Below are positions 39,815-64,000 of a stretch of 64,000 nucleotides of DNA, piece by piece; positions within the stretch are counted from its first letter, which is position 1; every line of letters starts with the position of its first letter. The stretch is from IMG/VR virus record IMGVR_UViG_3300031669_005479, positions 138,815 to 202,814 of that record. One strand, given 5' to 3'. This DNA comes from a virus (Duplodnaviria > Caudoviricetes). A program made the position numbers and the translations under genes. The notes below the pieces were generated by a model. That model ran no database searches. It saw only the letters and a program-made list of their open reading frames with translations, and was not told the origin of the DNA.

Positions 39815-39889
39815 ATGAAAAATTTAACACATACACAACCCCAACCGAAACAACAGCCACAAATTGTTGAATGGGGAAGTTATGCTTGA
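39815..39889 (+). CDS. attenuator leader peptide 1 (Gln/Pro/His-rich)
   Basis: MKNLTHTQPQPKQQPQIVEWGSYA; upstream of the Pro/Pro/His/Gln/Gln/Gln tRNAs; contains GAATGGGG complementary to the terminator 5' arm. Confidence 0.85.
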   Translation: MKNLTHTQPQPKQQPQIVEWGSYA

Positions 39890-39914
39890 ATTTTTCGAAA
39901 GATGATTTTAAGTG

Positions 39915-39950
39915 AAAAAAACCCCATTCTTAATTGAATGGGGTTTTTTT
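39915..39950 (+). terminator. attenuator terminator 1
   Basis: AAAAAAACCCCATTC-ttaatt-GAATGGGGTTTTTTT. Confidence 0.9.
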
Positions 39951-40007
39951 GTAACAAAAAAATTTTTATTTCGTACAATAGTTCATTGACATATTAATAT
40001 TTTATAT

Positions 40008-40082
40008 CTAGGTGTTCCGCAGATGGATATACGGGCGTGCCTTGGAAGCACGTGTTCGCAGGTTCGAATCCTGCTACCTAGA
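40008..40082 (+). tRNA. tRNA-Pro(TGG)
   Basis: CTAGGTG/TACCTAG acceptor, CGTGC-CTTGGAA-GCACG, GTTCGAATC. Confidence 0.93.
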
Positions 40083-40167
40083 GGTAATCAAATTAAACTA
40101 CCTGCACGTGGTGATTACTGCACGGTTGAATAAACCGACCAAATGTTTAATGTATAATATATATGGT

Positions 40168-40677
40168 ATGAGTAATATAAGCGATATACTTAAAGAAGCA
40201 AAAAGTAAAGGATATTATGCCGATGAATATGGTAAAATTTATTCAGCGAAGAAATTAATTTCATTACGAAATAGAGATAATCGGTTAAATTTTACCATAA
40301 GATATTATGGAAAAAGAGTTACAATTGCCGTACATAAGTATGTTGCATATTTAAAATATGGTGATAAAATTTTTGATGATGGTATTGAAGTAAGACATTT
40401 AAATGGAAATTCGCTAGATAATTCATATGAAAATATTTTAATTGGAACTCATAGCGATAATATGCTTGATATTCCAAAAAATGTTAGAATAAAAAAAGCA
40501 ATATCAGCATCAAGTAAAAATAGAAAATTTGGTGATGATATCATTAAGAATATTATGAATGATAAAAATAATGGTATGTCATATAGTAAATTATGTGAAA
40601 AATATAATACAAGTAAATCGACATTAAGTTATTTATTTAATAATGCGTATTATAGTGGTGCTAGAAATATAGAGTAG
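40168..40677 (+). CDS. HNH homing endonuclease between two tRNA-Pro genes
   Basis: VHKYVAY...VRHLNGNSLDNSYENI...GTHSDN and a C-terminal HTH; start could be 40150. Confidence 0.88.
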   Translation: MSNISDILKEAKSKGYYADEYGKIYSAKKLISLRNRDNRLNFTIRYYGKRVTIAVHKYVAYLKYGDKIFDDGIEVRHLNGNSLDNSYENILIGTHSDNMLDIPKNVRIKKAISASSKNRKFGDDIIKNIMNDKNNGMSYSKLCEKYNTSKSTLSYLFNNAYYSGARNIE

Positions 40678-41192: not shown

Positions 41193-41277
41193 TGACCTCT
41201 GGTGGAATTGGCTAAACACAACTGTCTTTGAAGCAGTCGTCCGTAAGGATTTGCAAGTTCGAGTCTTGCGAGGTCAA
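41193..41277 (+). tRNA. non-canonical tRNA(TTG), Gln anticodon with a long variable arm
   Basis: TGACCTC/GAGGTCA, ACTGT-CTTTGAA-GCAGT, V-arm TCC-GTAA-GGA, Leu-like D-arm GTGGAATTGGCTAAACAC. Confidence 0.85.
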
Positions 41278-41282
41278 CAAAA

Positions 41283-41490: not shown

Positions 41491-41572
41491 ATGTGGAAGT
41501 TAAAAAAATTCATTATTTTTACAAAAACATTATGTGGAAGTTAAAAAAATTCATTATTTTTACAAAAACATT
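41491..41572 (+). repeat. perfect 41-bp tandem duplication
   Basis: ATGTGGAAGTTAAAAAAATTCATTATTTTTACAAAAACATT twice. Confidence 0.92.
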
Positions 41573-41575
41573 ATT

Positions 41576-41959
41576 ATGAAGTATAACCTATATCTTGATG
41601 ACTTCCGTGACCCCATAGATTCTGCATATTATCTTAATAATCCTATTTATGAAACACTTCAATGGATTGTTGTTAGAAATTATGATGAATTTATTAAGTG
41701 TGTTATAGAAAATAGTATTCCAGAAGTAATATCCTTCGATCATGACTTGGCAGCAACACATTATGACCATCAATCTAATATAGAATACGATGTATTTACA
41801 GAAAAAACTGGTTATGATTGTGCTAAATGGTTTATTGATTATGTGATTGATAATAAATCGAAACTACCAAAAACAATACTTATTCATTCGATGAATCCTG
41901 CTGGAAGTGCTAATATTAAATCGCTATTTGATAGTTATATTAAATCATTAAATCTGTAA
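41576..41959 (+). CDS. cyclic-phosphate-processing receiver-like domain protein
   Basis: LYLDDFRDP, VVRNYDEF, ISFDHDL, TGYDCAKW, IHSMNPAG. Confidence 0.8.
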   Translation: MKYNLYLDDFRDPIDSAYYLNNPIYETLQWIVVRNYDEFIKCVIENSIPEVISFDHDLAATHYDHQSNIEYDVFTEKTGYDCAKWFIDYVIDNKSKLPKTILIHSMNPAGSANIKSLFDSYIKSLNL

Positions 41960-43975: not shown

Positions 43976-44065
43976 ATGAAAAATTTACTCGACATATTAA
44001 TGGCAACTTTGGTGGAAGTCCTATTATGGGCAGACGCAGAGGATAAATTACGCACAGTCGGGTAA
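43976..44065 (+). CDS. attenuator leader peptide 2 (Leu/Asp/Glu/Val/Ala/Trp/Met)
   Basis: MKNLLDILMATLVEVLLWADAEDKLRTVG; ends in GTCGGGT complementary to the terminator 5' arm. Confidence 0.85.
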   Translation: MKNLLDILMATLVEVLLWADAEDKLRTVG

Positions 44066-44094
44066 TGTATATTACACACTCCTTTCTTAATAAG

Positions 44095-44129
44095 AAAAAC
44101 CCGACAAACGAAAGTAAGTCGGGTTTTTT
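44095..44129 (+). terminator. attenuator terminator 2
   Basis: AAAAACCCGAC...GTCGGGTTTTTT. Confidence 0.9.
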
Positions 44130-44169
44130 GATTTTTAGGTTGGATGTTCTTTGACATGTTGGAAATTTT

Positions 44170-44262: not shown

Positions 44263-44346
44263 GCGGCGTTATACAAGTGGCTAAAGTGGCAAGACCTTCA
44301 ATCTTGTATCGAAAGATTTCGAGGGGTTCGAATCCCCCACGCCGTA
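44263..44346 (+). tRNA. non-canonical tRNA(TTC), Glu anticodon with a long variable arm and C33
   Basis: GCGGCGT/ACGCCGT, CAAGA-CCTTCAA-TCTTG, V-arm ATC-GAAA-GAT, GGTTCGAATCC. Confidence 0.75.
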
Positions 44347-44441
44347 CGAAGTTCAATATGAAATATAGTGGTTTCAGAGGTTTGTTCATATTGAGGTTTA
44401 GTAATTCCAAGGTCGATAATAATGACCAAAAATCTCGCCAT

Positions 44442-45267: not shown

Positions 45268-45350
45268 ACGTCCGTAGGCATTGGTAAGCCAAACAGTCTC
45301 CAAAACTGCAACCCGAAAGGGTCTTGCTCGTTCGAATCGAGCTGGACGTG
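45268..45350 (+). tRNA. non-canonical tRNA-Trp(CCA) with a long variable arm and 4-bp anticodon stem
   Basis: ACGTCCG/TGGACGT-G, aCAGT-CTCCAAA-ACTGc, V-arm ACCC-GAAA-GGGT. Confidence 0.87.
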
Positions 45351-45443
45351 CTAATTTTTATAAATTTTGTAACATTTTGAATAGAGTATACGTATCATAA
45401 GAATCATTTAGTATTTTATTAATTTTGTAAAATTTATAAAGTT

Positions 45444-53771: not shown

Positions 53772-54005
53772 ATGGCTAATGAAATAATTGGTATGTGGAT
53801 ACTTAGATATGATGATTGGTATTTAATCATTACATCTGATAAGAAAGTGTTTGACGTTAAAACAAAAAAACAACTTATTGAGTATTGGAATAATGGAACC
53901 ATTGCGTATAGATTACCATGTTCAACCAAGAAAATAGGAATTAAAACAATCAATAAGTATTGCATAAAAAGTACGGTTGTATTGCAAGAATTTTGCCCAT
54001 TTTAA
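53772..54005 (+). CDS. hypothetical protein
   Basis: 77-aa ORF. Confidence 0.55.
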   Translation: MANEIIGMWILRYDDWYLIITSDKKVFDVKTKKQLIEYWNNGTIAYRLPCSTKKIGIKTINKYCIKSTVVLQEFCPF

Positions 54006-54022
54006 AAATAATTACAAATTTT

Positions 54023-54064
54023 TGTAACATTTTGTTGTTTATTACGTATTTATACTTATATTTG
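54023..54064 (+). promoter_or_regulatory. stacked promoters of tRNA cluster 3
   Basis: TGTAAC-N16-CGTA, GTATTTAT and GTTG-N19-TATATTTG all overlap here. Confidence 0.75.
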
Positions 54065-54101
54065 TAATCTGAAAAACAAACAAAATTAAAACAATAGAAC
54101 A

Positions 54102-54194
54102 ATGAGAACTTTTGGTAAATATTATTTTAGTAAAAAATCATATAAGAAACAACTTATAGGAATCGGGAATAGTATGTCCAAAAGAAAATCATAA
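54102..54194 (+). CDS. attenuator leader peptide 3 (Lys/Tyr-rich)
   Basis: MRTFGKYYFSKKSYKKQLIGIGNSMSKRKS; AATCGGG complementary to the terminator 5' arm. Confidence 0.83.
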   Translation: MRTFGKYYFSKKSYKKQLIGIGNSMSKRKS

Positions 54195-54214
54195 TGATTT
54201 TGGAATTAAACCAT

Positions 54215-54245
54215 AAAAACCCGATTCGAAAGTTTCGGGTTTTTT
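54215..54245 (+). terminator. attenuator terminator 3
   Basis: AAAAACCCGA-ttcgaaagtt-TCGGGTTTTTT. Confidence 0.9.
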
Positions 54246-54263
54246 ATTTTTTAAAAGTGAAAT

Positions 54264-54350
54264 GTACCTATGGCTCAATTGGTAGAGCAACTGGCTTTTA
54301 ACCAGTGGGGTTGCTAACGCACGTTGAGGGTTCGAGTCCCTCTGGGTACA
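54264..54350 (+). tRNA. non-canonical tRNA-Lys(TTT) with a 19-nt variable region
   Basis: GTACCTA/TGGGTAC, ACTGG-CTTTTAA-CCAGT, variable region GGGGTTGCTAACGCACGTT. Confidence 0.88.
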
Positions 54351-54355
54351 CAAAT

Positions 54356-54428
54356 ATCTCAGTAGCTTAGTTGGTAGAGTAGGTGTCTCTTAAACATCGG
54401 GTCATGGGTTCGAATCCCATCTGAGGTA
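54356..54428 (+). tRNA. tRNA-Lys(CTT)
   Basis: ATCTCAG/CTGAGGT, GGTGT-CTCTTAA-ACATC. Confidence 0.92.
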
Positions 54429-54434
54429 CAATTT

Positions 54435-54503
54435 GGGAGTAATTCTTTGGAGAAACCAGCTCTGTAAAAGCTCACATAGTGGGTTCGATGCCCTCTACTC
54501 CCA
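54435..54503 (+). tRNA. minimal tRNA-Tyr(GTA) with no long V-arm and a 4-nt D-loop
   Basis: GGGAGTA/TACTCCC, TTCT-TTGG-AGAA, AGCT-CTGTAAA-AGCT, GGTTCGATGCC. Confidence 0.75.
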
Positions 54504-54797
54504 CTTATTTTAGTATCAATAGTTTCCAACACCTTTAATGGATTCTAGTTTAATCGAATGCACAAAAGGGGCAATTGTTTAAAAACGATTGCCTTTTTTA
54601 TTTTCGAATGTATTTCAATGTAACGTTTTGCCATTTCCATTTCAAATATTCAGTACGATTGAGGTCTTGAATTTCTTCACGAATTATCGAAATCACACTA
54701 CTCATGATTAAATTTTTTTATTCTAAATAACCTTGCACTTTAATTAAAAATGAATTATCTTTGTGCAAAATAACTTTATGCTTAAATAATTTAATAA

Positions 54798-55544
54798 ATG
54801 GCAGAGAAGAAAAAGAAGGTAACCACTACTGTTACCACTACAGTTACCGAAGAAATCATCGGTAATTCAATTAACGAAAAAACACAAATTATTTGTATTC
54901 TTGATAGAAGTGGTTCAATGTCAAGTATTATGAGTGATAGTATTGGTGGATTCAATACGTTTCTAAAACAGCAAAAAGAACTACCTGATGATGCAGCACT
55001 AACAGTTGCGTTGTTTGACGATAAATACGAATTGCTTTATGATAACATTGACATTAAAAAGGTCAAAGAACTAACAAAAAAAGAATGGTTTCCTCGTGGC
55101 ACAACTGCATTGTATGATGCAATTGGTAAAACAATCAATACTGTCAGAACAAATCGTGAGCATTTGGGTGATGAAAAACCAACCAAAGTATTGGTATGTA
55201 TTGTAACAGATGGTCTTGAAAATGCAAGCAAGGAATACAGAATTTCCGAAATTAAGGAACTCATAAAAAATTGTGAAAAAGATGACTGGAATTTTATATA
55301 TCTTGCTGCAAATCAAGATGCATTTGATATTGGTAGTTCATTTGGTATAAGTGGTAGCAATACGTATACATATACTGCTTCGGCAGCGGGTGTGTATAAT
55401 ATGTCAAACACATTAAATGCTTCTGCATCCACATATCGAAGCATGAGCATGTTTGATGCAGATTTTGATAAAAAATCAAAATCTTTGATAAATGATTATA
55501 GTGGAAGCGCAATACCCACTATTCTTACTAAAGATACGAAATAA
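54798..55544 (+). CDS. von Willebrand factor A domain protein
   Basis: ILDRSGSM (DxSxS MIDAS), GTTALYDA, IVTDGLENAS. Confidence 0.9.
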   Translation: MAEKKKKVTTTVTTTVTEEIIGNSINEKTQIICILDRSGSMSSIMSDSIGGFNTFLKQQKELPDDAALTVALFDDKYELLYDNIDIKKVKELTKKEWFPRGTTALYDAIGKTINTVRTNREHLGDEKPTKVLVCIVTDGLENASKEYRISEIKELIKNCEKDDWNFIYLAANQDAFDIGSSFGISGSNTYTYTASAAGVYNMSNTLNASASTYRSMSMFDADFDKKSKSLINDYSGSAIPTILTKDTK

Positions 55545-55745: not shown

Positions 55746-58700
55746 ATGACAAATAATATTCTTAAAAGTTTTCCCAAACAAGAGGTGGAAAAAGCAGCAT
55801 TACAATACTTTAAAGGTGATGAGTTAGCAGCAGACGTTTGGATTAAAAAATACTGTTTAAAGGATGAAAATAACTTTTATGAATTGACTCCCGATGACAT
55901 GCATCGAAGAATTGCAAAAGAAATTGCAAGAATTGAAGCAAAATATATAAATCCGCTTTCCGAAGACCAGATTTACGAAACACTAAAAAATTTTAAAAGA
56001 ATTGTGCCACAAGGCAGTCCAATGTCAGGAATTGGTAATAATTTTCAGGTAGTTTCGCTAGGAAATTGTTTTGTTGTTGGTAATGATGCTGATTCATATG
56101 GTGGAATTATTCGAATTGATGAGGAGCAAACACAATTAATGAAGCGTAGAGGTGGTGTTGGTCATGATTTGTCGATGATCAGACCAAATATGACACCAGT
56201 AAAAAACAGTGCAATTACTTCTACAGGTATCGTTCCCTTCATGGAAAGATATTCGAATAGCACAAAAGAGGTTGCACAGGATGGACGACGTGGTGCATTA
56301 ATGTTATCCGTGTCAATAAAACATCCTGATGCAGAATCGTTTATTGATGCAAAATTATTACAGGGAAAAATATCTGGTGCAAATATTTCGGTAAGAATTG
56401 ATGATGAGTTCATGAATTCGGCATTAAATGAAAAATCATATAATCAACAATATCCAATTGATGGTATCGCCAAGTATCAAAAAGAAATTGATGCATCAAA
56501 ACTTTGGAAAAAAATTGTTCACAATGCTTGGAAATCTGCCGAACCTGGTATTCTTTTTTGGGATAAAATTCTAAATGAATCAATACCTTCATGCTATGGT
56601 AAAAAATGGGTTGAAAAAAGCACAAATCCATGTGTCAGTGAAGATACATTAATATTGACAGATGATGGATATCTACCGATCAAAGAATTGGTTGGTAAAA
56701 AGGTTAATGTTTGGAACGGTGAAGAGTTTTCCGAAACCATTCCAGCAATAACTGGATATAATCAAAAAATGATTAAAATAAAATTTTCTGATGGTAGTGA
56801 ATTAAAATGTACACCATATCATAAATTCTACACTTGGAAAGGTTTTGAACGTGATGGAAAGGTAATAAAAAAGAACGGAAATGAACTTATTGTTGGTGAT
56901 AAGTTGGAAAAATATAAATTTCCAAAATTAAAACGAGATTTGAGCACTGGCCATCATATTTACATATCGACTGATAATATTGGCAATGGCTACATAACAA
57001 ATAAGGAATTTTATACTGCAGGTTTTTTTGCTGGTGACGGACATATTAAAAGAAATGATGAGTATATGATTTCATTATATGGAGTAAAAAAAGAATTAAT
57101 ACCATATTTGGAAATTATTGGTAATGAATCTGAGGATATTGCTAACGATAAAATTACGGTAAGAATAAATTTACCAGAATATTTTAAATTTAGTCCTCAA
57201 AACATACCAATTAAAAAAATAATACCAATCTATGAAAAGGGGATGCCTGAATTAGATGTGTTGAATTGGTTGGCTGGTTTAATCGATTCTGACGGTTCAC
57301 GTAATTCTGATAAAGGGTCAATATCAATTTCTTCAATAGATAAAAACTTCTTAATGCAAATTAAACTAAATATATTAAATACGTTTGGTATTAATGGAAG
57401 TGTTATTGATGAAAAGAATGGCGGTATTAAGAAAATTAAGGGAATTGAATATGAAACAAATAAATCATATAGACTAATAATTAGCGCACATAATGTTAAA
57501 AAATTATATGATTTAGGTTTAAGAACACATAGAGTTAAAATCGATGATGTTAATCCAAATCGTGATGCATCTCGATTTATAACTGTTGAATCAATTGAAT
57601 CTATCGATGATGCAGACGTTGTATATTGTTTTACTGAAGAAAAACGTGGGAGAGGTTGCTTTAATGGCGTGGTTACTGGACAATGTGGCGAATTGCCGTT
57701 GCCACCATATGATTCATGTAGATTGGTGTGCATGAATTTATATGGTTACGTTGTAAATCCTTTTACAGTAAATGCGTATTTTGATGAGGAAGCATTTAGT
57801 AGAGATGTACAGATTGCTATGAGGTATATGGATGATATTGTAGACCTAGAAGTTGAAAAAATCGATACTATTTTATTGAAAATTCAATCCGACCCAGAAT
57901 CAGACGAAATTAAGTTAGTTGAAAAGAATTTATGGGAAAAAATTCGTGGTATGGCACTTGAAGGTAGGAGAACTGGCTTAGGCGTTACTGCAGAAGGAGA
58001 TATGCTTGCCGCACTTGGCTTACGATATGGTACAGAAGAGGCGACAATATTCAGTGAAAATGTGCATAAGGGACTTAAATTAAACGCATATCGCTCATCA
58101 GTTACAATGGCTAAAGAACGTGGTGCTTTTCCAATTTATAATCATAATTTAGAATCAAGCAATCCGTTTATATTAAGAATTTTAGAAGAAGACCCACAAT
58201 TACATTACGATATGTGGACTTATGGTCGTAGAAATATTGCACTGCTAACTATTGCACCAACTGGTAGTGCAAGCTTAATGACACAAACAACATCAGGCAT
58301 TGAACCAGCATTTTTACCTGTTTATATGCGTAGACGTAAGATTAATCCACAAGAAAAGGATGTTCGTGTGGATTTTATTGATGATGAGGGTATTTCATGG
58401 ATGCAATATCCAGTATTTCATCATAAGTTTGAAATATGGTTAGAAGTTGAGGGATATGATGTTAATGTTGTTAAAACCATGAGCAAAGAACAACTTGACG
58501 AAATTGTGAAGAAATCACCCTATTATAAAGCAACATCAAATGACGTTGATTGGGTGATGAAAGTTATAATGCAAGGTAAAATACAAAAACATATTGACCA
58601 TAGCATTTCTGTTACGGTTAATCTTCCAGAATCGGTGAGTGAAGAAACTGTTGCAAAAGTATATGAAACTGGTTGGAAATCTGGTTGCAAAGGCATTACT

Positions 58701-59354
58701 GTTTATCGTGATGGTAGTAGAAATGGTGTACTTGTTGGTGCAGAAGATAATAAAAAAGAAAATTTTCACGAGAATCACACACCCAAAAGACCAAAAAGAT
58801 TGAAGGGTGAAATTCACAAATTTCAAAATAATTTGGAAAAATGGATTGCCGTTGTTGGCCTACGTGATGGTAGACCATATGAAATTTTCACTGGAAGACT
58901 TGAAAATGGATTAAGTAAATTACCTCCAAACATTAAAGACTGTGAAGTTGTTAAACAAATATTTGAAGTAGAGGAAATGGATGAGGATGGTAAAATGATT
59001 AAAGTTAGAAAAAAAAGATACGATATTGAATATATTGATAGTAATGGCGAAAAACAAATACATACTGGTTTAAACCACGCATTTAATCCTGAATATTGGA
59101 ACTATGCAAAACTTTTTTCAGGTGTACTTCGACATGGTATGCCAATTATTTATGTCTATCAACTAATTAATTCTATGAATCTAAATAGTGATCATTTGAA
59201 TACGTGGAAAAATGGCGTTGCACGTACAATAAAAAAGTACATTAAGGACGGTGAAAAAATTGAAGGTAAATGTCCTGAATGTGGTAGTGAACATTTAGAA
59301 TTTAAAGAGGGATGTTTAATCTGTATGTCCTGTGGTAGTTCAAAATGTAACTAA
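55746..59354 (+). CDS. nrdJ: class II (adenosylcobalamin-dependent) ribonucleotide reductase with intein
   Basis: SLGNCFV, RRGGVG, TNP/CGE active site split by the intein, RRTGLG, TIAPTG, KGITVYRDGS, C-terminal CPECG...CMSCG. Confidence 0.92.
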   Translation: MTNNILKSFPKQEVEKAALQYFKGDELAADVWIKKYCLKDENNFYELTPDDMHRRIAKEIARIEAKYINPLSEDQIYETLKNFKRIVPQGSPMSGIGNNFQVVSLGNCFVVGNDADSYGGIIRIDEEQTQLMKRRGGVGHDLSMIRPNMTPVKNSAITSTGIVPFMERYSNSTKEVAQDGRRGALMLSVSIKHPDAESFIDAKLLQGKISGANISVRIDDEFMNSALNEKSYNQQYPIDGIAKYQKEIDASKLWKKIVHNAWKSAEPGILFWDKILNESIPSCYGKKWVEKSTNPCVSEDTLILTDDGYLPIKELVGKKVNVWNGEEFSETIPAITGYNQKMIKIKFSDGSELKCTPYHKFYTWKGFERDGKVIKKNGNELIVGDKLEKYKFPKLKRDLSTGHHIYISTDNIGNGYITNKEFYTAGFFAGDGHIKRNDEYMISLYGVKKELIPYLEIIGNESEDIANDKITVRINLPEYFKFSPQNIPIKKIIPIYEKGMPELDVLNWLAGLIDSDGSRNSDKGSISISSIDKNFLMQIKLNILNTFGINGSVIDEKNGGIKKIKGIEYETNKSYRLIISAHNVKKLYDLGLRTHRVKIDDVNPNRDASRFITVESIESIDDADVVYCFTEEKRGRGCFNGVVTGQCGELPLPPYDSCRLVCMNLYGYVVNPFTVNAYFDEEAFSRDVQIAMRYMDDIVDLEVEKIDTILLKIQSDPESDEIKLVEKNLWEKIRGMALEGRRTGLGVTAEGDMLAALGLRYGTEEATIFSENVHKGLKLNAYRSSVTMAKERGAFPIYNHNLESSNPFILRILEEDPQLHYDMWTYGRRNIALLTIAPTGSASLMTQTTSGIEPAFLPVYMRRRKINPQEKDVRVDFIDDEGISWMQYPVFHHKFEIWLEVEGYDVNVVKTMSKEQLDEIVKKSPYYKATSNDVDWVMKVIMQGKIQKHIDHSISVTVNLPESVSEETVAKVYETGWKSGCKGITVYRDGSRNGVLVGAEDNKKENFHENHTPKRPKRLKGEIHKFQNNLEKWIAVVGLRDGRPYEIFTGRLENGLSKLPPNIKDCEVVKQIFEVEEMDEDGKMIKVRKKRYDIEYIDSNGEKQIHTGLNHAFNPEYWNYAKLFSGVLRHGMPIIYVYQLINSMNLNSDHLNTWKNGVARTIKKYIKDGEKIEGKCPECGSEHLEFKEGCLICMSCGSSKCN
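56631..57683 (+). mobile_element. Gln-terminal LAGLIDADG intein (351 aa) at the RNR active-site Cys
   Basis: Starts CVSEDT, ends GVVTGQ followed by Cys; motifs AGFFAGDG and LAGLIDSDG. Confidence 0.92.
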
Positions 59355-63821: not shown

Positions 63822-63944
63822 ATGAAAACACGAACAACAAATATTACCATTAGCACATCGATTATTAGTCGTAATGGAAGTTCTATATTCTGTTCAAATT
63901 TTACAGGCAGAAATATTGATGTTATCGGGTTATGGTTTTCATAA
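63822..63944 (+). CDS. attenuator leader peptide 4 (Thr/Ile/Ser/Arg/Asn/Gly/Phe/Cys)
   Basis: MKTRTTNITISTSIISRNGSSIFCSNFTGRNIDVIGLWFS; ATCGGGTT complementary to the terminator 5' arm. Confidence 0.8.
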   Translation: MKTRTTNITISTSIISRNGSSIFCSNFTGRNIDVIGLWFS

Positions 63945-63968
63945 AAGTAAAAGAAAACTAATAAAGTC

Positions 63969-64000
63969 AAAAACCCGATTCGAAAGATTCGGGTTTTTTT
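63969..64000 (+). terminator. attenuator terminator 4
   Basis: AAAAACCCGA-ttcgaaagat-TCGGGTTTTTTT. Confidence 0.9.

Follow-up and report, generated by a model that had tools for sequence, protein, structure and literature searches.

Leader-peptide attenuation belongs to the textbook repertoire of gene regulation and has been described for amino-acid biosynthesis and for a few synthetase genes. In the Enterobacterial leaders trpL, hisL, pheL, leuL, thrL, and ilvL, a short ORF carries the regulatory codons, pairing of region 1 with region 2 competes with pairing of region 2 with region 3, and region 3 is the 5' arm of the terminator. The same plan, with moderate support for the 1:2 pairing, is seen in the phage locus described here, called leader 3, and the model proposed for it below shares with the trpL-type attenuators a stalled ribosome that selects the antiterminator. 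It also shares with thrL (Thr and Ile) and ilvL (Ile, Leu, and Val) the property of being multivalent, with more than one amino acid sensed. A component of the decoding apparatus can be regulated in this way too, as the pheM leader subjects pheST, which encodes the phenylalanyl-tRNA synthetase of E. coli, to leader-peptide attenuation. T-box riboswitches resemble leader 3 in that the choice between antiterminator and terminator is made by the state of a specific tRNA and in that the genes controlled belong to the translation apparatus. No published report of leader-peptide attenuation of tRNA genes, or of its use in any virus, was found in the full-text literature, subscription journals lying outside the coverage of that search. 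Phage T5 provides a functional parallel, as its tRNA-Lys counters PARIS (PMC11464382), its tRNA-Tyr counters retron-Eco7, and tRNA-Lys counters PrrC (PMC11555353).

Leader 3 lies on an IMG/VR viral contig of 202.8 kb and about 30% GC, with a completeness estimate of 66%. The final 64 kb of this contig, which contain leader 3, are referred to below as the window. Genes for a T4-type major head protein, a portal, and a large terminase are present in the window, together with 18 to 20 tRNA genes grouped in blocks. The nearest cultured relatives of the capsid protein belong to Flavobacterium phages (immuto), with 41% identity over 42% of the query. TAnnTTTG promoter-like boxes, together with missing Shine-Dalgarno sites, point to a Bacteroidota host, and the phage is probably a giant, T4-like phage of such a host. 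A Megablast search of 21 kb against INPHARED returned a sole match of 113 nt, to an uncultured huge phage, and a distant search of public phages for leader 3 gave chance-level matches only. Leaders of this design are absent from Flavobacterium phage immuto, chosen via its capsid protein, and from Tenacibaculum phage pT24, chosen via a chance DNA match, each of which carries 3 to 4 tRNAs; no cultured model phage with the device was found in these two nearest cultured relatives.

The window also contains an HNH endonuclease ORF (Pfam HNH_3, 40012-40677) that sits between two tRNA-Pro genes, its start overlapping the first of them, and that is probably a homing endonuclease within the tRNA block. 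A ribonucleotide reductase large subunit has an intein carrying a LAGLIDADG endonuclease (55746-59354), and a thymidylate synthase is split by an HNH endonuclease domain (1159-2763). Immediately 3' of the Gln tRNA block, a unit of about 45 nt (GTGGAAGTTAAAAAAATTCATTATTTTTACAAAAACATTAT) is tandemly duplicated at 41493-41580.

In our judgement, leader 3 is most likely a transcription attenuator of the ribosome-mediated, leader-peptide type, controlling an operon of three tRNA genes in which the tRNA product itself is the sensed molecule. Its elements follow one another in the order promoter-like motif, ORF, antiterminator, terminator, and tRNAs, and are found at the following positions of the window.

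54021..54064, + strand: putative promoter region, made up of TTTGTAAC-N16-CGTATTTAT (54021-53) and a Bacteroidota-type -7 box, TAtaTTTG (54057-64)
54102..54194, + strand: leader 3 ORF of 30 codons, predicted product MRTFGKYYFSKKSYKKQLIGIGNSMSKRKS, stop codon at 54192-94, A-rich upstream
54109..54115, + strand: 5' strand of helix P1, CUUUUGG, pairing with CCAAAAG at 54178-84 in the termination state
54117..54149, + strand: regulatory codon run KYYFSKKSYKK (residues 6-16), 8 of 11 Lys or Tyr, which also provides the 5' strands of P2 and P3 (region 1)
54160..54167, + strand: region 2, the antiterminator strand GAAUCGGG (DNA GAATCGGG; codons G-I-G), complementary to 54220-27
54178..54203, + strand: CCAAAAG (3' strand of P1) and a downstream UUUUGG copy, a read-through hairpin enclosing the stop codon
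54215..54245, + strand: regions 3 and 4, the intrinsic terminator AAAAACCCGA-loop-UCGGGUUUUU with its U-run, -13.5 kcal/mol
54264..54351, + strand: tRNA-Lys(UUU), 88 nt, 65.5 bits, with a 15-nt insertion in the variable region
54356..54429, + strand: tRNA-Lys(CUU), 62.2 bits
54435..54504, + strand: probable tRNA-Tyr(GUA), weak, 70 nt, 23.2 bits in Rfam (gathering score 29), with a short variable loop and a 3-bp D stem
54564..54599, + strand: strong hairpin and U-run closing the leader-tRNA operon, -17.4 kcal/mol, z -6.2

An initial annotation of this DNA had proposed a KYYFSKKSYKK leader in front of Lys-UUU, Lys-CUU, and Tyr tRNAs, and every one of these elements is present. The Tyr gene is the weak one, being detected by ARAGORN only at a relaxed threshold, unlike the clear tRNA-Tyr genes of homologous loci. 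The eight Lys and Tyr residues counted in positions 6 to 16, with both AAA and AAG in use, were also confirmed; over the whole leader, Lys is encoded by six AAA codons and one AAG (54144-46), and Tyr by three TAT codons. The ORF has no Shine-Dalgarno site upstream. The complementarity noted between AATCGGG (54161-67) and the terminator's CCCGATT (54220-26) proved to be part of a perfect 8-bp complement between GAATCGGG at 54160-67 and CCCGATTC at 54220-27, the latter spanning the G/C core of the terminator 5' arm and the first loop bases. The terminator hairpin (54215-54244; z -3.55) runs into six T residues at 54240-45, an A, and a further six T residues at 54247-52. The distance from the first T-run to tRNA-Lys(UUU) is 18 nt, into which no separate tRNA promoter fits. 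Searches of 53900-54800 with an E limit of 10, and of the whole window at the gathering score, matched none of the Rfam leader families (Trp_leader, His_leader, Leu_leader, Thr_leader, etc.). The T-box riboswitch (RF00230) was also considered for 53900-54800 and rejected, with no match at E up to 10.

Several of the tRNAs in the window are of unusual shape. The variable region is 10 to 15 nt longer in the Lys(UUU), Gln(UUG), Glu(UUC), and Trp tRNAs (54264-54351, 41193-41278, 44263-44347, and 45268-45351), and three Leu tRNAs and the Tyr tRNA (54435-54504) are without the long arm that would be expected in class II tRNAs of bacteria.

The gene upstream of leader 3 ends at 54005, and the promoter-like motif sits between there and the ORF. 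Within the window, TTTGTAAC-N16-CGTATTTAT is found at this single place, compared with 0 of 100 shuffles, and the same motif with a TAnnTTTG box is found upstream of homologous leaders. When IMG/VR was scanned for TTTGTAAC-N12-17-CGTATTTAT, a tRNA was present no more than 700 nt downstream in 46 of 121 matches. It is possible that the motif is an UP-like element or, alternatively, a phage-specific promoter. In one motif subgroup (IMG/VR loci L009-L124), the motif is followed by a second Bacteroidota-type promoter and then by a tRNA-Met without a leader ORF. A simple promoter/terminator scan, whose loop rule and sigma-70 consensus are ill-suited to this locus, called neither terminator (54215-54245 or 54564-54599) and no + strand sigma-70 promoter. 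The hairpin at 54215-54244 was missed probably because its loop falls outside the 3 to 8 nt that the scan allows; the fold and U-tract of 54215-54245 are unambiguous.

Leader 3 is one of four such units, the others being the following.

39817-39951: leader 1, Pro/Gln/His, MKNLTHTQPQPKQQPQIVEWGSYA, upstream of Pro, Pro, His, and three Gln tRNAs
43976-44130: leader 2, Leu/Asp/Glu/Val/Ala/Trp, MKNLLDILMATLVEVLLWADAEDKLRTVG, upstream of Asp, Glu, Val, Leu, Ala, and Trp tRNAs
63823-64000, the contig's very end: leader 4, MKTRTTNITISTSIISRNGSSIFCSNFTGRNIDVIGLWFS followed by a stop codon, with antiterminator TTATCGGG and terminator AAAAACCCGATTCGAAAGATTCGGGTTTTTTT

The grouping of the leader 4 unit is Thr/Ser/Cys/Asn/Ile/Phe/Gly/Arg, and in complete relatives (L116/L132, L129, and L089) the homologue of this leader lies upstream of Thr/Cys/Asn/Ile/Ser/Phe/Gly tRNAs. 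The promoter region of leader 4 is nearly identical to that of leader 2. When the leaders of four genomes were compared with all tRNA clusters in a matrix, significance was confined to the diagonal, each leader being enriched for the amino acids of its own cluster, and leader 3 showed no enrichment for those of other clusters. Leader composition tracks the identity of the downstream tRNAs across at least seven amino-acid groupings. In other phages, SYEAYEYEYE is found upstream of Glu, Tyr, and Glu tRNAs, LRQILRQLR upstream of Leu, Arg, Met, and Gln, FSSYLLSLSLLS upstream of Ser, Leu, Phe, and Tyr, and SYEYSYEYSEFMSFERSF upstream of Glu, Phe, Tyr, and Ser, the last at 50% GC and with a sigma-70-like promoter and a Shine-Dalgarno site. 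GGGAGA upstream of Gly and Ala is a weak case, with an antiterminator complement of just 6 nt (shuffle p 0.51). In an unbiased IMG/VR sample of tRNA clusters, a codon-matched ORF (p<0.01) was present at 9 of 52 terminator-tRNA junctions, compared with 3.0 in permutations (p = 0.007); the excess in this sample is not significant at stricter cut-offs (p<1e-3: 2 junctions compared with 1.0 in permutations). The recurrence of the rule across phage GC contents and translation-initiation styles suggests a widespread and overlooked principle.

Two loci from this survey deserve separate mention. At L136:4871-5350 (genome G004, 50% GC), a small HTH (XRE-like) ORF separates a Ser/Tyr/Glu/Phe leader and the terminator of that leader from the Glu/Phe/Tyr/Ser tRNAs downstream, and this attenuator may gate a regulator gene as well. 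At L027:1266-1500, a clear leader 2 homologue ending in KLLDILVVLVCGILLWNDAKLLFYVG before its stop codon shows none of the codons ATG, GTG, and TTG where the start aligns; its frame begins with ATA, and it may have a non-canonical start or be a decayed leader.

The match between leader codons and downstream tRNAs bears on what the device senses. It is possible to keep the same attenuator hardware and suppose that the signal under selection is not tRNA abundance but starvation for amino acids (uncharged tRNA) or a general translational slowdown, so that the unit times or throttles tRNA synthesis with host physiology. As established for the trp and his attenuators, a ribosome senses only the aminoacyl-tRNA ternary complex, to which charging and abundance look the same, and a leader for every amino acid with a tRNA block does resemble a general translational gauge. 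We nevertheless think this unlikely, since extra tRNA is no remedy for amino-acid starvation and a starvation response would be futile, and since the precise match of leader codons to downstream tRNAs, regrouped among phages, fits product feedback best.

Fifteen distinct homologues of leader 3 were recovered from IMG/VR contigs, through the homologues of a neighbouring vWA-like gene and through the promoter-motif scan, and all lie upstream of Lys/Tyr tRNAs. The ATG is invariant in the 15, and within the first 22 codons they contain no stop in frame 0, compared with 24 in frame +1 and 43 in frame +2. Lys and Tyr account for 6 to 11 of the first 17 codons after the start in each homologue, with AAA and AAG, and TAT and TAC, swapped synonymously. 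The invariant ATG, the open frame, and the synonymous exchange together argue that leader 3 is a translated frame in which codon identity is under selection. A terminator is found in all 15. Taken by itself, leader 3 has 10 Lys and Tyr codons in 29, compared with a genome background of 13% (binomial p = 0.003), a modest enrichment that is suggestive only, as AAA and TAT are favoured by 30% GC. We regard the comparative evidence as the decisive support for leader 3.

The antiterminator helix (54160-67/54220-27) was returned by unguided RNAalifold on an alignment of the 15 sequences (A1). Here, 97.5% of cells are paired and four of the eight pairs have changed on both sides; slid controls reach at most 58% and 0 of 500 shuffles match, although the homologues are mutually related and shuffle controls overstate their independence. 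Individual lineages have their own antiterminator/terminator pairs, TAAGACTGG/CCGGTCTTA and CTGGATCAGG/CCTGATTCAG, as well as the shifted pair TGGGAATT/GATTCCCA in L003. These come from a per-sequence analysis, which was used because terminator covariation on the MAFFT alignment is uninformative, divergent members being mis-registered in the 3' arm.

For the whole leader, the minimum free energy (MFE) fold is the 1:2-plus-terminator state, at -33.1 kcal/mol (z -4.2). It contains three helices in addition to the terminator.

P1, + strand: 54109-15 with 54178-84
P2, + strand: 54119-28 with 54166-75
P3, + strand: 54138-46 with 54153-61

Together these helices connect the stretch of Lys/Tyr codons with the sequences flanking region 2, an arrangement like that of a classical 1:2 element. 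On A1, P1 to P3 are 75.9% paired compared with 40 to 51% for slid controls, and 11 pairs have changed on both sides (1 of 500 shuffles); as the structure was taken from the window's own, AU-rich sequence, its score against the slid controls is inflated. Five of the seven P1 pairs have changes on both sides. This gives moderate support to the proposal that 1:2 helices sequester the Lys/Tyr codons and the antiterminator strand. Folding of the nascent RNA up to region 3 gives the antiterminator fold, at -18.7 kcal/mol. In the read-through conformer (fold of 54150-54231), CCAAAAG and the downstream UUUUGG pair around the stop codon and close the loop between region 2 and region 3. A stop-codon hairpin is seen in most homologues with differing sequences, a less rigorous test. 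In equilibrium folds with a ribosome mask on the Lys/Tyr codons, the terminator state is still preferred, and the predicted switch must therefore be kinetic.

A leader with this much structure might instead be an untranslated RNA switch, either a T-box-like element that binds tRNA or one that binds a protein, with the ORF as a by-product of RNA conservation. The z of -4.2 and the overlap of helix strands with much of what is conserved in the 'peptide' would be expected on such a reading. It leaves unaccounted for the invariant ATG, the frame that stays open in all 15 homologues next to two frames with 24 and 43 stops, and the synonymous exchange of Lys and Tyr codons. Rfam cis-regulatory families, T-box included, gave no match at E up to 10, chance-level sRNA hits aside, and the one feature common to the unrelated leaders of other phages is that their codons match the downstream tRNAs. 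An untranslated switch is on these grounds highly improbable. Short Lys-, Tyr-, Asn-, and Ile-rich ORFs are frequent in AT-rich DNA, intergenic terminators are common, and the single-leader p is only 0.003, yet it is scarcely credible that the ORF is a chance or independent small gene, the hairpin an ordinary terminator of upstream transcription, and the tRNAs expressed by constitutive leak-through or from an unrecognised promoter, given that the upstream gene stops before a conserved promoter-like motif that precedes the leader, that the tRNA begins just 18 nt after the first T-run, that covariation of the antiterminator would have no role, and that chance is disfavoured both by a codon/tRNA match confined to the diagonal in four genomes and by the excess over permutations in the unbiased sample.

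The reading of the initial annotation, that leader 3 is an attenuator matched to the Lys, Lys, and Tyr tRNAs that follow it, is thus supported by the conserved ORF, the Lys/Tyr run, the terminator, the antiterminator covariation, and the tracking of downstream tRNAs by leader composition. The attenuator that we favour would work as follows. Transcription would start about 30 to 40 nt upstream of the leader 3 ORF. When Lys and Tyr aminoacyl-tRNAs are plentiful, the ribosome would pass the Lys/Tyr run and GAAUCGGG, reach the stop codon, and sit between regions 2 and 3. Alternatively, if the ribosome has gone or was never loaded, region 2 would be locked in P1 to P3 with the Lys/Tyr codon stretch. 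In both cases the terminator would form, and RNA polymerase would halt 18 nt short of the first tRNA. When Lys or Tyr tRNAs are scarce, the ribosome would stall on the Lys/Tyr codons with P1 to P3 melted, and the freed GAAUCGGG would pair with the emerging CCCGAUUC before region 4 is made, leaving no terminator. The resulting read-through would transcribe the Lys(UUU), Lys(CUU), and Tyr(GUA) genes, and the new tRNAs would relieve the stall, closing a negative feedback loop. The leader 3 peptide itself is expected to be without function. A look through sequencing runs listed no RNA run containing this DNA, a result that counts neither for nor against the model.

The position of the stop codon constrains this scheme. 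An antiterminator about 25 nt before the stop codon, in a geometry different from that of leaders 1 and 2, had been pointed out from the outset, and by count the antiterminator strand and the stop codon are 24 nt apart. The gap is 18 to 37 nt in 14 of 15 Lys/Tyr class leaders and 6 nt in L003. Leaders of the Pro/Gln/His class have gaps of 10 to 14 nt, and in the Leu/Asp/Glu class the gap is 0 nt for four of six leaders, among them the one in the window. With gaps of 10 nt and 0 nt, leaders 1 and 2 have the classical geometry, in which a ribosome at the stop codon masks region 2 as in trp; leader 3 does not allow this masking, which is a feature of the trp model and not of the whole attenuator class. 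Given the 24-nt gap, termination in the fluent case would have to use a ribosome between regions 2 and 3 or a rapid refolding of the 1:2 element.

A further possibility, which we put forward tentatively and consider doubtful as it stands, is that the four leaders together make up a counter-defence circuit that can be induced. A PrrC-, PARIS-, or retron-Eco7-type nuclease, or phage-induced tRNA decay, would deplete host tRNA-Lys and tRNA-Tyr, the leader would stall, and the phage isoacceptors would be switched on only then. The odd tRNA shapes, such as the 15-nt insertion of Lys-UUU and the Tyr tRNA without a long arm, might confer nuclease resistance, and the terminated leader RNA could act in trans. 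The idea is attractive since PARIS, PrrC, and retron-Eco7 have been documented to target tRNA-Lys and tRNA-Tyr, with phage tRNAs serving as the antidote (PMC11464382; PMC11555353). That Lys-UUU is the PrrC target, as the initial annotation noted, is true as background (abstract of PMC11555353) and is no evidence for leader 3. As all four tRNA blocks have such leaders, no nuclease is singled out as the trigger.

If the proposed feedback is correct, tRNA-rich phages would gauge decoding capacity per codon family and top it up on demand, rather than simply flooding the cell with additional tRNAs. This bears on the long-standing question of why and when phages need tRNAs, whether for codon-usage compensation or in response to host tRNA decay or defence nucleases. 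The leaders would also offer a sequence-only read-out of the tRNAs that a phage treats as one regulatory unit, and they could serve as compact, modular codon-specific sensors in synthetic biology.

Compared with known systems, the Lys/Tyr cluster resembles the counter-defence tRNAs of T5 in that phage Lys and Tyr tRNAs would replace depleted host tRNAs. It differs in that expression of those counter-defence tRNAs is reported as strong or constitutive, a strong promoter being named in a section heading of PMC11555353, with no demand-sensing switch described there. T-box riboswitches work independently of the ribosome, using a specifier codon and the T-box sequence to bind uncharged tRNA directly, whereas the predicted sensor of leader 3 is a conserved ORF. 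In pheST, leader-peptide attenuation acts on a synthetase protein and a single amino acid from a chromosomal gene, whereas leader 3 would regulate tRNA genes. In the trpL-type attenuators, the stop codon lies just before or inside region 2 and not 24 nt beyond it as in leader 3. Unlike them, leader 3 is phage-encoded and would regulate tRNAs rather than enzymes, so that the product itself is sensed, and its phage carries four units that partition the amino acids within one genome.
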